A stretch of 47,366 nucleotides of DNA, taken from contig CAZYOB010000006.1 of NCBI GenBank assembly GCA_964648275.1, positions 1 through 47,366 on the forward strand, read 5' to 3'. How positions within the stretch are numbered: position 1 is the stretch's first letter; each line of letters starts with the position of its first letter. A program made the translations under genes and the position numbers. The notes beneath the pieces are model-generated. The model ran no database searches, was not told where the DNA came from, and was given only the letters and a program-made list of their open reading frames with translations. The stretch comes from an uncultured Pseudomonadales bacterium (GTDB taxonomy: Bacteria; Patescibacteriota; Microgenomatia; UBA1400; MFAQ01). Shown piece by piece: positions 8,059-14,044 of this stretch.

Positions 8059-8385
8059 TTATATATTGATGGCCTTGACGGTGAAGTGGCTTTCGAATTG
8101 TCTGTGTCCCATAACTCTACGATAACGGGATTTAGCCTTGAATTTAGCGACTCTGATTTTTACTCCCTTATCAGTACCCTCGAAATCGAGGTCTACAGAG
8201 GCTCCTTCAACAAAAGGGGCGCCTACCTGTGTCTTCTCTCCATCATGGGTAAGAAGAACGTCTTTAACATTGAGTTTTTCACCTTCTTTGAGCTCAATTT
8301 TTTCACTTACTATCTTGTCACCAACCTTGACTAAGTACTGTTTTGAGCCAAGTTGAATGACCGCATGTAACTGTTTGTTTGTCAT
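8059..8385 (-). CDS. rplU: 50S ribosomal protein L21
   Basis: AVIQLGSKQYLV, GAPFVEGA, KFKAKSRYRRVMGHRQ. Confidence 0.97.
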   Translation of the reverse strand: MTNKQLHAVIQLGSKQYLVKVGDKIVSEKIELKEGEKLNVKDVLLTHDGEKTQVGAPFVEGASVDLDFEGTDKGVKIRVAKFKAKSRYRRVMGHRQFESHFTVKAINI

Positions 8386-8393
8386 GGGCGCAA

Positions 8394-9449
8394 TTATATC
8401 TCAAAAGGGGTCATTAAATCAAGGAGCCTAAGTTCCAAACCGATCAAAATTGCGAAGCTCAGAAGGGAGCTGCCCCCGTAAGAGAAAATCGGCAAGGTAA
8501 TGCCAGTCACAGGCATGACCCCCAAATTCATGCCAATATTGACGACGGTTTGGAATAGAAAGACAAAAAACACCGAAAGAGAAAGCAAGACATGGCTTTT
8601 TTGCCTTAAAAGGCTGCTGATCCTTAAGTAGCGCGAAAAAAGGAAATAATAGGCAGAAAACAAAACGGCAATCCCTAGAAAGCCAAATTCCTCAGCAAAT
8701 GAAGCAAAGATAAAATCCGTGTGGCGTTCAGGTAGGTAATTTAGCTGGGATTGGGTACCTAAGCGGACTCCCTTTCCCCAAAGTTCACCTGAACCGATGG
8801 CGATAGTTGCTTGGATGACGTTATAGCCAGCACCCTTGGGGTCTTTATAAGGATTAATGAAACTCTCAATCCTCTGTCTCTGGTAGGGTTTAAGAAATTT
8901 AGATTCAAGGGGGATGAGTATCACCGCCGCTACCACACCAATAACCAGCAATCGTTTTAGGTGCCCGGTAATAGAAAGCAGAGCAATCGGAAGGAATAAT
9001 AGGGTAAGGGCAGATCCCAAATCCGGTTGTCTGGCCACCAATATCACGGGAATAATAGCCAAGACCATGAATAAAGCAAAACTTTTCATTGACTTCAGGT
9101 TGTTCTTAGATAGAAACTGGGAATAAAAAATTGCCAAAAGAGGTTTTACTATTTCAGAAGTTTGCAGATTAAAAAAGCCTAGATCGATCCAGCGAACAGA
9201 CCCACGGATATTTTTTCCGATGACTGCTGTCAGTAGTAGAAGAATGATCGATGTGACATAAAGCGCTCCGGAAAGGCTAAAAAGCAGATCGATGTCTACC
9301 TGGCTAATAAGGAAAATGATGATAACACTGGAAACAAAGAATGAAAATTGAGTAGCGAATAGATCCGGAGCAGTGCTCCAAATAGTAACCAGGCCAAGTA
9401 TTTGGATAAGAAGAAGGACAAAGATTATTGAGCCCTTTCTAGGCTTCAT
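8394..9449 (-). CDS. rodA: SEDS protein RodA
   Basis: GSVRWIDLG, QTSEIVK, QPDLG, IGSG, PERHTDFIF, PVTGITLP, SYGGSS. Confidence 0.88.
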   Translation of the reverse strand: MKPRKGSIIFVLLLIQILGLVTIWSTAPDLFATQFSFFVSSVIIIFLISQVDIDLLFSLSGALYVTSIILLLLTAVIGKNIRGSVRWIDLGFFNLQTSEIVKPLLAIFYSQFLSKNNLKSMKSFALFMVLAIIPVILVARQPDLGSALTLLFLPIALLSITGHLKRLLVIGVVAAVILIPLESKFLKPYQRQRIESFINPYKDPKGAGYNVIQATIAIGSGELWGKGVRLGTQSQLNYLPERHTDFIFASFAEEFGFLGIAVLFSAYYFLFSRYLRISSLLRQKSHVLLSLSVFFVFLFQTVVNIGMNLGVMPVTGITLPIFSYGGSSLLSFAILIGLELRLLDLMTPFEI

Positions 9450-12268
9450 GGGTGTCTCTTTATTTTGACGGTATCACCTTTAACCAAATTATCCACAAGG
9501 GTTTTTCGTTTTATTTCCTCTTCAGATTCTTTTGGCCAATCGGGAAGTTCGACATCTATCCTTTCATCAAGTCGACACCCCGCTAGCTTGCGCGCTTCTT
9601 GAATTTCCCTGACAAGTTCTCTGGCTTTACCTTTCGCCCTTAGCTGATCTGTGATCTGAGTATCGAACTCGATGCCTTGCTCTTTTGAATCTATCAGAAC
9701 AACTTCATCAACGTTAAGTTCATCTTTGATTAACTGAAGAAGTTCGATTTCATCTTTGAGGGAAGAAAAATTGCCGCTAACATTAATCTGAGATAGTGGT
9801 TGCTTGGTGGCAATACCGAGAGCTTTACGGGAAGCATTACCCATCTCGGCGATCTTCCTGACTTGAGACATCTTGGATAGTAGTTCTGTGTCAATAACAC
9901 TTCTATCATTGACTTCCGGCCAATCTTCCAGATGAACCGATTCTTCACCCGTCAAATGCCGGTAGAGGTATTCGGAGATAAAGGGAATTATGGGAGCACT
10001 TGTCCTGAGGAAGACCTTAAATACAGTAGCCATGGTGGTGTAGGCGATCTCTTTATCTTCAATATTCAAGGATCCCGGACCGACTCTATCTCTTGATCTT
10101 CTGATGTACCAAGTTGAAAGGTCATCGACAAATGATTTAAGAGCGGCGACTGATTTTGGAATCTGATATGAAGATAGGCTCTCATCCATATCCAATATTG
10201 TCTGATCAAGACGAGTTAGAATCCAAGCGTCCAGTGCTGTGGGTCTGGTCGTGAATTCAACCTTTAGTTCCCAATCCTCCAAACTAGCATAGGTAACAAA
10301 ATATTTATACGAATTCCATAGGAGCATAAGAGTTGTCTTCAGCTCATTAGCCCAGTCTGATTCAGAAATGGCTATATCCTGACCGAGAACTATCGGGCTT
10401 CCCATAAGGTAAAGTCTGAGAGAATCGGCACCGTATTTTTCGATCGCCTCTTTGGGATCAGGGAAGTTACCGTAGTTCTTGCTCATCTTTCTACCATCAT
10501 TCCCCTGGATCACTCCGGTAACGATTACGTTCTTAAAAGCAATTGAGTCGAAGAGAAGATTAGAAATTACATGAGTGACGTAGAACCAAGCTCTTAGTTG
10601 ACCAGTGTACTCAGTGATAAAGTCTGCTGGAAAATTGTTTTTGAATTTTTGTTCATTCTCAAATGGATAATGTACTTGCGCATATGGCATCGAGGCAGCC
10701 TCTACCCAGCTGTCGAGAACCTCAGGAACTCTCTTGGCCTGCTGACCACACTTTGGACATTTAAGGGTTACTCTATCAATATCAGGGCGGTGCAGATCAG
10801 TTATTTTTTGACCTGAAAGTTTTTCTATATCAGAAATCGACCCGGCAACAATTTTTTCACCACAAACACATTCCCATACAGGTATCGGGGCTCCCCAATA
10901 TCTAGTCCTTGAAATACACCAGTCCGGTGCAGAATCAATACCCAGCTCAAATCGTCCGTGCTTAAAAAATTCCGGTACCCAATTTATATCGGAATTTGTG
11001 TCCTTAAGTTGCTTCTTTACTTTCTGAATATCGATGTACCATGCTGTTTGTGCTTTATAGAGTAATGGAGTTTCACATCTGTGACAGTGTGGATAACTAT
11101 GAGTAATTTTTGTACTCTTATACATTAATCCCCTATTCTCAAGATCCGTGATGATAAATTTGTCAGCTCCCTTAAAATATTTTCCTTGAGCAACTTCGAC
11201 AATTGGATCCATCATGCCGGTGTCATCAACCGACTCAGCCATTGATAAGCCGTGTTCTTTCCCCAGCTGGGTATCATCTTCTCCGAATCCCGGTGCAATG
11301 TGAACAATACCCGTACCGTCTTCCATGGAAACAAAATTCGCGGAATATAGGTGGTAATCGTTATTGTTTGAGGGGTAATAGTGGTATAGCGGTTCGTATT
11401 CTTTCCCTTCAAGCTCATGTCCTTTAAACTCTCTCTGAATTTTGTATTCATCACCGAGAACCTCTTTGAGTCTGTCTTTGGCCATTATCAAGTTTTCCCC
11501 ATGATGTTCTACTTGAACATAGTCGCTGTCGGAAGAAAATCCAAGAGCAAAGTTGCTAGGAAGGGTCCAGGGGGTGGTCGTCCAGGCCAAGATGGAAGCA
11601 TCTTGATCTTTAAGTTTGAATTTAATGAATACCGATGGGTCGGTGACGTCTTTGTAGGAATTATCCATAGCAACCTCAAAGTTGCTTATGGGAGTCGAAC
11701 AGCGAGGGCAAAATAGTGAAACACGTTTACCTTTGTAGATAAAACCTTTGTCGAAAAGTTCTTTGAATACCCAAAGGACAGATTCCATGTAGGGCATATC
11801 CATGGTTCTGTAAGCATTTTTAAAATCAACCCAGCGACCAATATGGTCTATGTACCATTCCCACTCTGCAGAAACATTTCCAACATATGATTTGCAGGCG
11901 GAAACAAATTTATCTATACCAAGCTCTTCAATTTCTTTTTTTGAATTAATACCAAGCTCCTTTTCAACTTTATTCTCTGCCGGTAGACCGTGACAATCCC
12001 ATCCCCAGACTCTTTCCACCCGCTTGCCCTTCATAGTCTGGAAGCGAGGAATGACGTCTTTTACTATGGATCCCAACAGGTGGCCGTAATGTGGTTTCCC
12101 GGTGACAAATGGAGGACCATCATAAAACCTGTAGGAGTTACTGGCGCTTCTGGCCTCCACAGATTTTTCAAAAGTCTCGTTTTCTTTCCACCCTTTAAGT
12201 ACCTCTTCTTCTACAGCTGAGGGAATGTAATTTAGGTCTAATGATTTAATCGTTTTCTTTTTATCCAT
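9446..12268 (-). CDS. ileS: Isoleucine--tRNA ligase, type 2 (IleRS2)
   Basis: DGPPF, HYGH, GWDCHGLP, WTTTPWTLP, WCISRTRYWG, KMSKN; Ile T-box upstream. Confidence 0.96.
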   Translation of the reverse strand: MDKKKTIKSLDLNYIPSAVEEEVLKGWKENETFEKSVEARSASNSYRFYDGPPFVTGKPHYGHLLGSIVKDVIPRFQTMKGKRVERVWGWDCHGLPAENKVEKELGINSKKEIEELGIDKFVSACKSYVGNVSAEWEWYIDHIGRWVDFKNAYRTMDMPYMESVLWVFKELFDKGFIYKGKRVSLFCPRCSTPISNFEVAMDNSYKDVTDPSVFIKFKLKDQDASILAWTTTPWTLPSNFALGFSSDSDYVQVEHHGENLIMAKDRLKEVLGDEYKIQREFKGHELEGKEYEPLYHYYPSNNNDYHLYSANFVSMEDGTGIVHIAPGFGEDDTQLGKEHGLSMAESVDDTGMMDPIVEVAQGKYFKGADKFIITDLENRGLMYKSTKITHSYPHCHRCETPLLYKAQTAWYIDIQKVKKQLKDTNSDINWVPEFFKHGRFELGIDSAPDWCISRTRYWGAPIPVWECVCGEKIVAGSISDIEKLSGQKITDLHRPDIDRVTLKCPKCGQQAKRVPEVLDSWVEAASMPYAQVHYPFENEQKFKNNFPADFITEYTGQLRAWFYVTHVISNLLFDSIAFKNVIVTGVIQGNDGRKMSKNYGNFPDPKEAIEKYGADSLRLYLMGSPIVLGQDIAISESDWANELKTTLMLLWNSYKYFVTYASLEDWELKVEFTTRPTALDAWILTRLDQTILDMDESLSSYQIPKSVAALKSFVDDLSTWYIRRSRDRVGPGSLNIEDKEIAYTTMATVFKVFLRTSAPIIPFISEYLYRHLTGEESVHLEDWPEVNDRSVIDTELLSKMSQVRKIAEMGNASRKALGIATKQPLSQINVSGNFSSLKDEIELLQLIKDELNVDEVVLIDSKEQGIEFDTQITDQLRAKGKARELVREIQEARKLAGCRLDERIDVELPDWPKESEEEIKRKTLVDNLVKGDTVKIKRHP

Positions 12269-12276
12269 ATAAATAT

Positions 12277-12319
12277 AAAAAATCCAGCTTTAGAGCCAGT
12301 ATAGCTCCTTTGCCGGATT
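12277..12319 (-). terminator. T-box attenuator terminator
   Basis: AATCCGGC...GCTGGATT stem with inner GAGC/GCTC, followed by a T tract; its 5' strand overlaps the antiterminator 3' strand. Confidence 0.8.
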
Positions 12320-12476
12320 AGAGTCTCAAACTTTTATAAGTAGAGACGGTACCATCTAATTGTTTAACTTTATTGCTGGCTATTACGGGCCTTCCCGAGG
12401 AGGTCTACTCTCAGAAAACTGAGTTCTTCTCCCGGCTTGCCCGGTGATAGCCGAGCTCAAATGCCTTGTTGAATCG
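12277..12476 (-). ncRNA. T-box riboswitch leader of ileS (AUC specifier, ultrashort Stem I)
   Basis: Stem I GCTCGG-CTATCA-CCGGGC; Stem II with GAA/AGTA S-turn; CGGG..GCCCG..GCC pseudoknot; antiterminator ATTAGA-TGGTACC-GTCTC..GAGAC-TCTAAT. Confidence 0.9.
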
Positions 12477-12482
12477 AGTATT

Positions 12483-12491
12483 ATTATACCA
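12483..12491 (-). promoter_or_regulatory. Extended -10 promoter of the ileS leader
   Basis: TGGTATAAT immediately upstream of the T-box. Confidence 0.7.
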
Positions 12492-12520
12492 ATCTTTGTC
12501 TAGTACAATTAATTTAACTT

Positions 12521-14044
12521 ATGGGAGCTTTATTATTCCTGATTTCCAGGCTGTGGTTTTTGAATTGGGATGAGGTTTTTTTTGATTCCGGGGAATATAT
12601 TAGCCGTTGGGCAAATCCAAATTATTTTTCAGCCATTATTTCTGGACATCCACCACTACATCTGGGATACATCCTCTACAACTGGCCAGTTTTTCGACTG
12701 TTTGAGAGGCAAGGGCTGAATCCACTACCAGCAATTTTGCTCGTTCAGGTCACTCTCGCTTTACTTTGCGTTTTCTTTTTTGGTAAGGTAGTCAGCAGAC
12801 TGGTGGAGGATAAGACAGCTAATAGAGCAATGATATTGGTTAGCTTGTTACCTATTTTCTGGATTGTTAATGTGACAGTGATGATGGAAACAGGTTATCT
12901 ATTCTTTTTCTTCGGTAGTCTATTTTTCTTAAGCAAATATACTTCCGGAGATGAAAAATACCGATATTTGATTCTTTCGACCGTTTTCTGGATGATGGCT
13001 TTCTTAACTCACACAGTAGTCTTAATCTGGATCCCCTTTTGGCTCTACCTGGCGTGGATGTGGAGCAAAAAGAGATTTATAAAGATCTTGATTGCGGGAA
13101 TATTATCTCTATTGGTAGCCAGTGCCATCAATGCATCATTCCTGGCGAATTCTCTTAAGACAACTCTGGATCAGGGATTTTACTGGCTTTATGCTGCAAA
13201 ATTTGGAGAGCATGCATGGTTTTCTTTTGATGTTGAAACTATTGGTAGGTATTTGAGGAACTGGTGGATCCCTTTGGTCTACAACAACACTTCACCGATT
13301 GTCATAATCGGCCTTCTATCTTTTAGTAGTATGTGGAAGACAAACAAAAAACTATTTTGGTTGGGTGTTTTTTGGATAGCGCCGTCTTTAATTGCCAACC
13401 AGTGGTGGGACAGCTTGCTTTACGGACGACATGCTCTGATAGCCGGATTTGGTTTGGCTTTCTACGTGTCGGTATTATTAAAAGGAATAAGTTATCGAAT
13501 TATCTCCCTGATAGTTCTGGTGATCTCGTTACCGACTCTTTCACTTTTAAGCCATCCAATTCCCTACAACTTGATGTCGGATAAAATCAGTCAATTACCT
13601 GGAGGCGGGCTTCTAATCGACAGCCATTTTGCACGACCGTATACAGATGGAAATTATTTTGGAAAAACTATCTACGTAGATGAGCCCGGATGGAACACTG
13701 CAGAGGCTGCCAGGATACTTGAGGAATACATTGATAACCGAAGAGATGTCTATGTTACCGGACATGCTTTAAGCGAGCCCTATGGCCTTTTTAGTGGTCC
13801 ATACCTACATCCGTTATCACTGTCATACAAAAATCCCTATATTTTGCAGCAAATCACAGATAAATGGGGGTTTGCGGAGTTCGAGGAAGTTAATCGGGGG
13901 TTAAACCTGATGGTTTACAAAGTCATCCCTCAGTCAGGAAAGTACGCAACTATAAAAAGGCTGGACGAGAATAGTAGGAGGATCGACTATTACGACCCCT
14001 TGCGACTATTCATGTCGGCAATTAAGGGTGGTCTAAATTTATAG
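12521..14044 (+). CDS. Polytopic membrane GT-C glycosyltransferase (PMT/ArnT-like)
   Basis: N-terminal loop WDEVFFDSGEY..HPPL, many TM segments, GRH loop and a soluble C-terminus. Confidence 0.65.
   Translation: MGALLFLISRLWFLNWDEVFFDSGEYISRWANPNYFSAIISGHPPLHLGYILYNWPVFRLFERQGLNPLPAILLVQVTLALLCVFFFGKVVSRLVEDKTANRAMILVSLLPIFWIVNVTVMMETGYLFFFFGSLFFLSKYTSGDEKYRYLILSTVFWMMAFLTHTVVLIWIPFWLYLAWMWSKKRFIKILIAGILSLLVASAINASFLANSLKTTLDQGFYWLYAAKFGEHAWFSFDVETIGRYLRNWWIPLVYNNTSPIVIIGLLSFSSMWKTNKKLFWLGVFWIAPSLIANQWWDSLLYGRHALIAGFGLAFYVSVLLKGISYRIISLIVLVISLPTLSLLSHPIPYNLMSDKISQLPGGGLLIDSHFARPYTDGNYFGKTIYVDEPGWNTAEAARILEEYIDNRRDVYVTGHALSEPYGLFSGPYLHPLSLSYKNPYILQQITDKWGFAEFEEVNRGLNLMVYKVIPQSGKYATIKRLDENSRRIDYYDPLRLFMSAIKGGLNL

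Follow-up and report, generated by a model that had tools for sequence, protein, structure and literature searches.

The leader of the ileS gene in the window, the whole stretch of 47,366 nucleotides analysed here, is on comparative sequence grounds a genuine T-box and more than a chance resemblance. T-boxes are the standard example of an RNA that reads another RNA, and we consider it likely that this one is specific for tRNA-Ile(GAU) and that, with attenuation of transcription as the most probable mode, it controls an ileS-rodA(-rplU) transcript. The host is a Collierbacteria-like member of the candidate phyla radiation (CPR) with a tiny genome.

Layout of the ileS leader

All parts of the leader lie on the minus strand (Table 1), and a re-reading of the sequence confirmed the coordinates given in a preliminary description of this DNA. 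Transcription is expected to start around 12476, a few nucleotides past an extended -10 element, and relatives carry TGnTATAAT-like elements equally distant from the conserved leader start AAAGCG. A scan with promoter and terminator consensus patterns returned sites no more numerous than in shuffles and is uninformative alone; it missed the -10 element because a good -35 element is absent.

The basal stem of the leader carries a motif that we call K-turn-like only, since its GA dinucleotide is AA in some relatives and thus not invariant. The following parts were found as the preliminary description had them: the ATC codon (12448-12446) is displayed in the loop capping a 6-bp Stem I, an S-turn Stem II follows, and the TGGTACC bulge (12348-12354) lies between helices A1 and A2 of the antiterminator. 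Both Stem I and the lower helix of Stem II covary, the latter with compensatory changes in four of five pairs. Of the IIA/B pseudoknot that had also been proposed, Stem IIA stood, with 98.9% of its cells paired. The candidate IIB pairs, which would join the IIA loop to GCC, fared less well: one of them is a near-invariant G-C (23 G-C, 1 A-U) and the second forms in 10 of 24 leaders, so that the pseudoknot itself is weakly supported.

Two relatives depart from this layout by additional hairpins. In L019, which belongs to the same family, an extra hairpin of 20 nt is inserted between the GCGUUU and the GAG of the K-turn-like motif, and L072 has an additional 5' hairpin ahead of Stem I.

Table 1. 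Positions of the leader elements and of the genes behind them in the window; RNA elements are read in descending order of coordinates
Feature	Position	Strand	Remarks
Extended -10 element, TGG TATAAT (TGGTATAAT)	12483..12491	(-)	from sequence; same spacing in relatives
Leader RNA	12476-12277	(-)	promoter-proximal, before ileS; ~200 nt up to AUG
Basal stem, 5' strand, and K-turn-like GA motif (AAGGC AUUU GA)	12457..12467	(-)	pairs with 12438-12434
Stem I, 6 bp, GCUCGG/CCGGGC (12456-12451 / 12444-12439)	12439..12456	(-)	18 nt in all
Stem I end loop, CUAUCA	12450-12445	(-)	6 nt; specifier AUC at 12448-12446, then A
GA motif and basal stem, 3' strand (AAGCC)	12434..12438	(-)	its A and G invariant in 24 leaders
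Stem II: lower helix GGGAG/CUCCU, S-turn-like AAGAA / AGUAGAC, upper hairpin CUCAG-UUUU-CUGAG	12398..12433	(-)	
Stem IIA (CGGG-AAGG-CCCG), then F-box-like CCGUAAUAGCC	12378..12397	(-)	
Purine-rich single-stranded linker AGCAAUAAAGUUAAACA	12361..12377	(-)	17 nt, at the usual place of Stem III
Antiterminator	12317..12360	(-)	A1, bulge and A2
A1, AUUAGA/UCUAAU	12360-12355 / 12322-12317	(-)	
T-box bulge, UGGUACC	12354-12348	(-)	7 nt, between A1 and A2
A2 hairpin, GUCUC/GAGAC	12347-12323	(-)	
Intrinsic-terminator-like hairpin	12319-12281	(-)	-18.6 kcal/mol; into U6 (12282-12277)
ileS	9446..12268	(-)	940 aa; Pfam tRNA-synt_1 1.4e-123, Anticodon_1
rodA/ftsW-family gene	8394..9449	(-)	Pfam FTSW_RODA_SPOVE 7.2e-85
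rplU (ribosomal protein L21)	8059..8385	(-)	Pfam Ribosomal_L21p 7.1e-24

Comparative support for the fold

Searching with blastn (E<=1e-3), we recovered the leader in 21 of 60 relatives, always across both the aptamer and the antiterminator. In a MAFFT alignment of 24 leaders, which was not fitted to the structure, the proposed structure left 91.7% of 460 cells paired, compared with 25.8-51.1% when the 3' partners were slid by 1-3 columns. Compensatory changes, i.e. changes on both sides of a pair, occurred in 14 of 20 pairs of the 24 leaders, and none of 500 shuffles matched any observed measure; these comparative counts overstate independence, because the relatives are kin.

The support is distributed over the individual helices as follows. 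The basal stem was paired in 97.2% of its cells and showed compensatory changes in two of three pairs, Stem I showed them in five of six pairs, and the lower helix of Stem II was paired in 98.3%. The loop-E-like letters of Stem II (AAGAA/AGUAGAC) are invariant or nearly so, and its upper hairpin is missing from many relatives. Stem IIA, for all its pairing, is nearly invariant. In the antiterminator, A2 keeps its pairing across relatives despite changed letters (GUCA/UGAC, GCCAA/UUGGC, ACUUC/GAAGU, CCC/GGG), and A1 covaries throughout the phylum (UUGGGG/CCCCAA, UUAAGG/CCUUAA, GCAGGA/UCCUGC). RNAalifold recovered the basal stem, Stem I and Stem II unaided. The minimum free energy fold of the single sequence instead pairs GGCUAU, from Stem I and the specifier loop, with AUAGCC in the F-box region; we rejected this pairing because relatives do not conserve the complementarity.

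Specifier codon and tRNA match

Does the specifier follow the gene? For this comparison we used a covariance model that covers the aptamer up to the bulge (121 positions) and was seeded with leaders lacking Stem III. Relatives and sampled genomes of the phylum together supplied 83 distinct leaders. The specifier was assigned by a rule blind to the gene, as the triplet that ends one base before the end of the loop in the model alignment. Once 10 leaders before other or unknown genes and 4 with irregular loops are excluded, 69 regular loops remain, all upstream of a gene assigned as aaRS or serB-like, and in 64 of them the triplet fits this gene. Shuffled gene labels gave 28.9 fits on average, and 0 of 10000 shuffles reached 64. 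The codon was AUC in every one of the 41 ileS leaders with a regular loop, GUC in 12 and GUA in 1 of 15 valS leaders, GAC and AAC in four each of nine aspS-like leaders, and UCC in two of three serS leaders. Two of the five misses (L027 and L067) have a UCC shifted by one base. A rule based on loops drawn by RNAfold had given 42 matches and 27 mismatches for the same 69 leaders; it performed more poorly because RNAfold adds or drops a closing pair, and it was replaced by the model-alignment rule.

The tRNAs of the genome agree with the leader at both predicted contact sites. Its tRNA-Ile has the anticodon GAU and the discriminator base A (A73), which fits the combination of AUC and UGGU, the latter being complementary to the ACCA end. 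Together with the covariation and the agreement of codon and gene, this match supports the anatomy that had been proposed from the window alone. The same genome contains a second T-box, located before serS (contig C30:2059-2164 (+), locus L033). It is likewise short-stemmed and lacks Stem III, with the loop CUUCCAA (UCC), the bulge UGGCACC and then a hairpin with U6. The genome's tRNA-Ser(GGA) has the discriminator G and fits the UCC and UGGC of this serS leader.

Besides the GAU species, the genome carries a tRNA-Ile gene with the anticodon UAU (contig C3:29579-29653 (+)). A tRNA-Ile(UAU) is uncommon in bacteria, where AUA is mostly read by a modified CAU tRNA. Four leaders with the Asn codon AAC stand before aspS-like genes (L039, L073, L080, L088), which fits the supply of Asn-tRNA by a non-discriminating AspRS. 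Leaders with UCC also precede serB-like HAD or histidine-phosphatase-family genes (L046, L067, L084, L087), and from their position the class would therefore appear to control serine synthesis as well.

Distribution in relatives and in the phylum

Is the ileS leader of the window an isolated case? The preliminary description had presented it as one hybrid. We found instead that it belongs to a class that is spread over the phylum and covers several amino acids: the covariance model matches 45 of 151 genomes sampled evenly across the phylum, and the leaders of the phylum display Ile, Val, Ser, Asp and Asn codons. Among close relatives, this genome included, 42 of 61 genomes match (25 of 36 in the family and all 3 in the genus), and a single genome holds as many as four leader copies. 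Exact copies of leaders from family members are present in public records titled Candidatus Collierbacteria and in others titled Microgenomates group. A motif scan, from which we draw no frequencies, yielded at least 116 stretches; the matches listed include Gottesman-, Woese-, Magasanik-, Pace-, Shapiro- and Amesbacteria, WWE3 and Saccharibacteria, as well as long-stem T-boxes without Stem III in records of Fusobacteria and Tissierellia.

Standard elements that are absent

Two features of standard T-boxes are absent from the leader, both of them points that the preliminary description did not note: there is no Stem III, and a G-C pair takes the place of a G.U wobble.

According to a review, Stem III with its purine-rich flanks is part of the discriminator and is called indispensable (PMC7583486). 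In the window, the 31 nt from the 3' end of Stem IIA to the bulge hold no predicted hairpin (0.0 kcal/mol). Within the window's family, 21 of 21 leaders likewise lack Stem III, whereas more distant leaders hold a hairpin there. What is left of the flanks is the conserved AAG and a run of A. Across 82 leaders, the distance from IIA to the bulge is at most 32 nt in 49, three of which are alignment artefacts that do hold a hairpin, 35-37 nt with a hairpin of 2-3 bp at most in 8, and 38-99 nt with a clear hairpin in 25; these shares are biased because the model was seeded with leaders lacking Stem III. In the Fusobacteria record (L113) and the Tissierellia record (L104), a long canonical Stem I is combined with a sequence of only ~15-18 nt from F-box to T-box. 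Stem III has therefore been lost outside the CPR as well.

The second feature is found at the A1/A2 junction. In the same review (PMC7583486), a G.U wobble at the end of A2 beside A1 is described as the steric sensor of the aminoacyl group. The window has a G-C pair at this place (GUCUC/GAGAC). Among 19 ileS leaders of the family, with the pair of L018 read by eye, we counted 16 G-C, 1 A-U, 1 C-G, 1 U-A and no G.U, and a G.U junction pair is present in some distant leaders (L037, L048, L052).

The Rfam T-box model RF00230 (gathering score 93 bits) found nothing in the window at its gathering score. The covariance-model check suggested in the preliminary description therefore came out negative for this model, with no match at E<=10 on 12150-12620, and on the whole 837-kb genome the best match reached 9.2 bits and lay elsewhere. 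We do not count this silence against the element, since RF00230 requires both a long Stem I and Stem III. A look-alike without tRNA sensing, decayed or arisen by chance, would be in keeping with the silent Rfam model and with the missing Stem III and G.U pair, but it would hardly account for conservation with compensatory changes across families, for a codon that fits the gene in 64 of 69 leaders, or for the discriminator match of two leaders in one genome. We regard this explanation as close to refuted by the comparative data.

Putative terminator, antiterminator and energetics

The preliminary description had the 3' strand of the antiterminator overlapping a hairpin with a T tract. The overlap is indeed present, but its extent, which had not been noted, is only 3 nt (AAU, 12319-12317), shared between the 3' strand of A1 and the hairpin, and A2 is folded in both states. 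In described T-boxes, as outlined in PMC7583486, the 5' arm of the terminator comprises the 3' strands of both A1 and A2. For the segment from A1 to the U tract we calculated -27.5 kcal/mol for the terminator state and -26.1 kcal/mol when A1 and A2 were forced together with a shortened hairpin. The hairpin alone has -18.6 kcal/mol, and -14.7 kcal/mol without the three shared pairs. The antiterminator has -9.5 kcal/mol, with -7.0 kcal/mol for A2 alone and an addition of about -2.5 kcal/mol by A1. With an overlap of only 3 nt, simple strand competition is therefore a thin explanation.

The relatives place these values in a wider frame. Behind the antiterminator, 62 of 79 leaders carry a hairpin with a T run, and the inner sequences of these hairpins are unrelated. 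Sorted by layout, the overlap is confined to 2-4 nt of A1 in 22 of the 79 and absent in 3; in 25 the 3' strands of A2 and A1 enter the terminator, the A2 loop being included in some; in 12 the terminator begins within the bulge or the 5' strand of A2; 14 are without a hairpin and T run by the criteria used, and 3 are uncertain; these counts are approximate, because some of the antiterminator calls are wrong (L018, L033, L067, L075, L084, L089). In the 22 leaders with the layout of the window, the hairpin has a median of -12.65 kcal/mol when full and of -7.7 kcal/mol without the shared pairs, so that the shared pairs matter more in most relatives than in the window. Indeed, the shortened hairpin of the window (-14.7 kcal/mol) is as stable as the complete terminators of its relatives, and the most stable shortened hairpins are those of the window and of its genus-mate L003.

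These energies bear on an explanation that differs from attenuation in what the hairpin does. The T-box would be real, but the hairpin and U tract would serve as a terminator that is constitutive or leaky, or as a 5' structure that confers stability. Instead of termination, the tRNA signal would affect, for instance, mRNA decay, processing or the access of the 30S subunit to the A/U-rich stretch before the AUG. The overlap of 3 nt and the small difference between the two states (-26.1 versus -27.5 kcal/mol), which lets both folds coexist, speak for it, as do the end of the hairpin at 12 nt from the AUG, at the edge of the ribosome footprint, the relative L009, for which a script found no overlap at all, and some distant leaders that have no U tract (14 of 79). 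On the other hand, the shared pairs make up a third to half of the hairpin stability in most relatives, the hairpin always adjoins 5-7 U as a terminator would, leaders of the same class carry terminators that are fully exclusive (using the 3' strands of A2 and A1, or the bulge), and conserved pairing to the start region was not seen. On balance we judge this explanation improbable, though it is the strongest of the competitors to attenuation.

Shine-Dalgarno use

Between the hairpin and the ileS AUG we found no Shine-Dalgarno (SD)-like motif; the stretch from U6 to the AUG (12268) measures only 8 nt (AUAUUUAU). The lack of an SD at ileS was thus correctly described before, though about 90% of the genes in this genome are equally without one. 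An SD core, defined as GGAG, GAGG or AGGA at -18 to -5, was present at 25 of 267 unambiguous starts (9%) compared with 24 of 267 in a control window, and with looser start calls at 50 of 509 compared with 55 of 509. Positions -11 to -4 before the starts are A-rich (40-47% A). This assembly contains no 16S rRNA gene. A genome of the same family keeps CCUCC at the 3' end of its 16S rRNA (L209:2975-2990), and low SD use is therefore not explained by loss of the anti-SD. With SDs this rare, a device that hides them would find few targets, while most leaders of the class carry a hairpin with a T run.

This weighs on the possibility that the leader controls translation by masking the ribosome-binding site, as in the actinobacterial short-stem ileS T-boxes. 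The decoding half does belong to a class that acts mostly on translation, according to PMC10482949, and a few high-G+C leaders (L044, L052, L061, L071) have no U tract and a hairpin before the start. In the window, by contrast, an SD-like motif is missing before the AUG, as it is in about 90% of the genes, the hairpin's 3' strand has the end of A1 as its partner and not the start region, and U6 follows the stem. Control of translation is therefore a quite unlikely mode of action for the leader of the window.

The high-G+C leaders deserve a separate remark. All four come from CPR genomes, precede ileS and belong to the same class; they have no U tract, and their hairpin ends ~10 nt ahead of the start codon; from this arrangement, they may act on translation.

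Putatively regulated genes and neighbourhood

The assignment of ileS is supported by the NCBIfam ileS model (TIGR00392), which is the top match for the first 400 aa of the 940-aa ORF. The start of rodA overlaps the ileS stop (ATGA, 9449-9446), which places rodA on the ileS transcript, in line with the earlier suggestion that the switch could gate rodA. The start of rplU lies 8 nt past rodA, and rplU is probably part of the same transcript, judging by this spacing. The switch would then gate rodA and rplU too, unless internal promoters exist.

On the other side of the leader, a divergent ORF of 507 aa (12521-14044 (+)) has a sub-threshold match to PMT_2, a glycosyltransferase family (24.3 bits, cut-off 26.1). 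As its start lies ~30 nt from the -10 box of ileS, two promoters must stand back to back. In same-family relatives, a near-identical leader precedes two distinct types of IleRS N-terminus (L004-L008 and L020 versus L007, L010, L011 and L016). One type reads ...YRFYDGPPF and scores ~420-440 with the NCBIfam ileS model; the other reads ...KYLHKND...DGPIT and scores ~290-300. The two are found side by side in a single genus, as though the leader had been kept and the synthetase gene behind it exchanged.

Proposed mechanism and significance

For attenuation, the mode of action that we prefer, the following sequence of events can be proposed. By analogy with the T-box literature, the anticodon of uncharged tRNA-Ile would pair with AUC and its 3' ACCA with UGGU, whereby A1 would be locked or stabilised. 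The locked A1 would keep the base of the terminator from closing beside the U tract, and the polymerase would read on into ileS. With charged tRNA, or with none, the weak A1 would open, A2 would remain folded and the terminator would close fully, so that transcripts would be expected to end near 12282-12275. Because the overlap is limited to 3 nt and the hairpin remains stable when shortened, we speculate that the bulk of the tRNA-leader complex against the 5' arm of the hairpin, by blocking completion of the hairpin at the polymerase, may matter as much as strand competition. A more far-reaching version is that the leader is a T-box that acts co-transcriptionally with a Stem I of 18 nt, no Stem III, no G.U pair and a terminator abutting A1, that antitermination is steric, and that the discriminator is unlike all solved ones; this we put forward only tentatively, and consider it rather doubtful.

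Reviews link a short stem to slow, reversible translational control and a long stem to fast transcriptional control, and treat Stem III as indispensable. The large, so far unannotated set of CPR leaders breaks all three of these links, here in a host that barely uses SDs. At ~200 nt, these leaders are natural minimal constructs for the speed of tRNA capture by a short stem, for the contributions of Stem III and of the G.U pair, and for the minimal overlap of an antiterminator. Moreover, their sequences indicate that amino-acid-responsive regulation of aaRS genes is present in reduced CPR genomes, where annotation based on Rfam has missed it.

Comparison with described T-boxes

Among the papers that it covered, our literature search found no T-box paper on the candidate phyla radiation, Patescibacteria or Microgenomates; on the combination of a short Stem I with a terminator it returned reviews only. 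This agrees with the suggestion of the preliminary description that such a combination in a CPR genome may be undescribed. The TBDB short-stem model was applied to Actinobacteria only, according to the preprint.

In a four-class scheme, class III T-boxes have a short Stem I, a specifier in an end loop of 5-6 nt and a required Stem II, and most of them control translation by SD sequestration (PMC10482949). For the actinobacterial ileS T-boxes with an ultrashort Stem I, from Nocardia farcinica and Mycobacterium tuberculosis, structures are cited in PMC7583486, a review that also argues for a long Stem I as a prerequisite of fast tRNA capture in transcriptional T-boxes. By the four-class scheme, the CPR leader has a class III decoding half, and the actinobacterial-type aptamer layout that had been recognised at the outset was thus an apt description. 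With the actinobacterial class III elements it shares the short Stem I without the elbow-binding distal motif (T-loop), the AUC followed by a purine in an end loop of 5-6 nt, the ileS target, the S-turn Stem II, a IIA/B element with an F-box-like sequence, the K-turn-like base and the UGGNACC bulge between A1 and A2. It differs from them in that a hairpin with U6 stands in place of the SD sequestrator, Stem III is lacking, G-C replaces G.U at the A1/A2 junction, and the host belongs to a CPR lineage that hardly uses SDs. In addition, the described class III is, as far as we are aware, restricted to ileS, whereas sister CPR leaders carry Val, Ser, Asp and Asn codons.

Compared with class I, i.e. 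the type of Bacillus subtilis tyrS covered by RF00230, the CPR leader lacks the long Stem I, the internal specifier loop, the distal T-loop motif and Stem III. Its terminator takes 3 nt of A1 and leaves A2 folded, unlike the class I layout described in PMC7583486, and RF00230 is silent at E<=10. Shared with class I are the S-turn Stem II, the IIA/B element and the T-box bulge, along with a putative intrinsic terminator as the off state and, as the presumed logic of the switch, tRNA-dependent antitermination.
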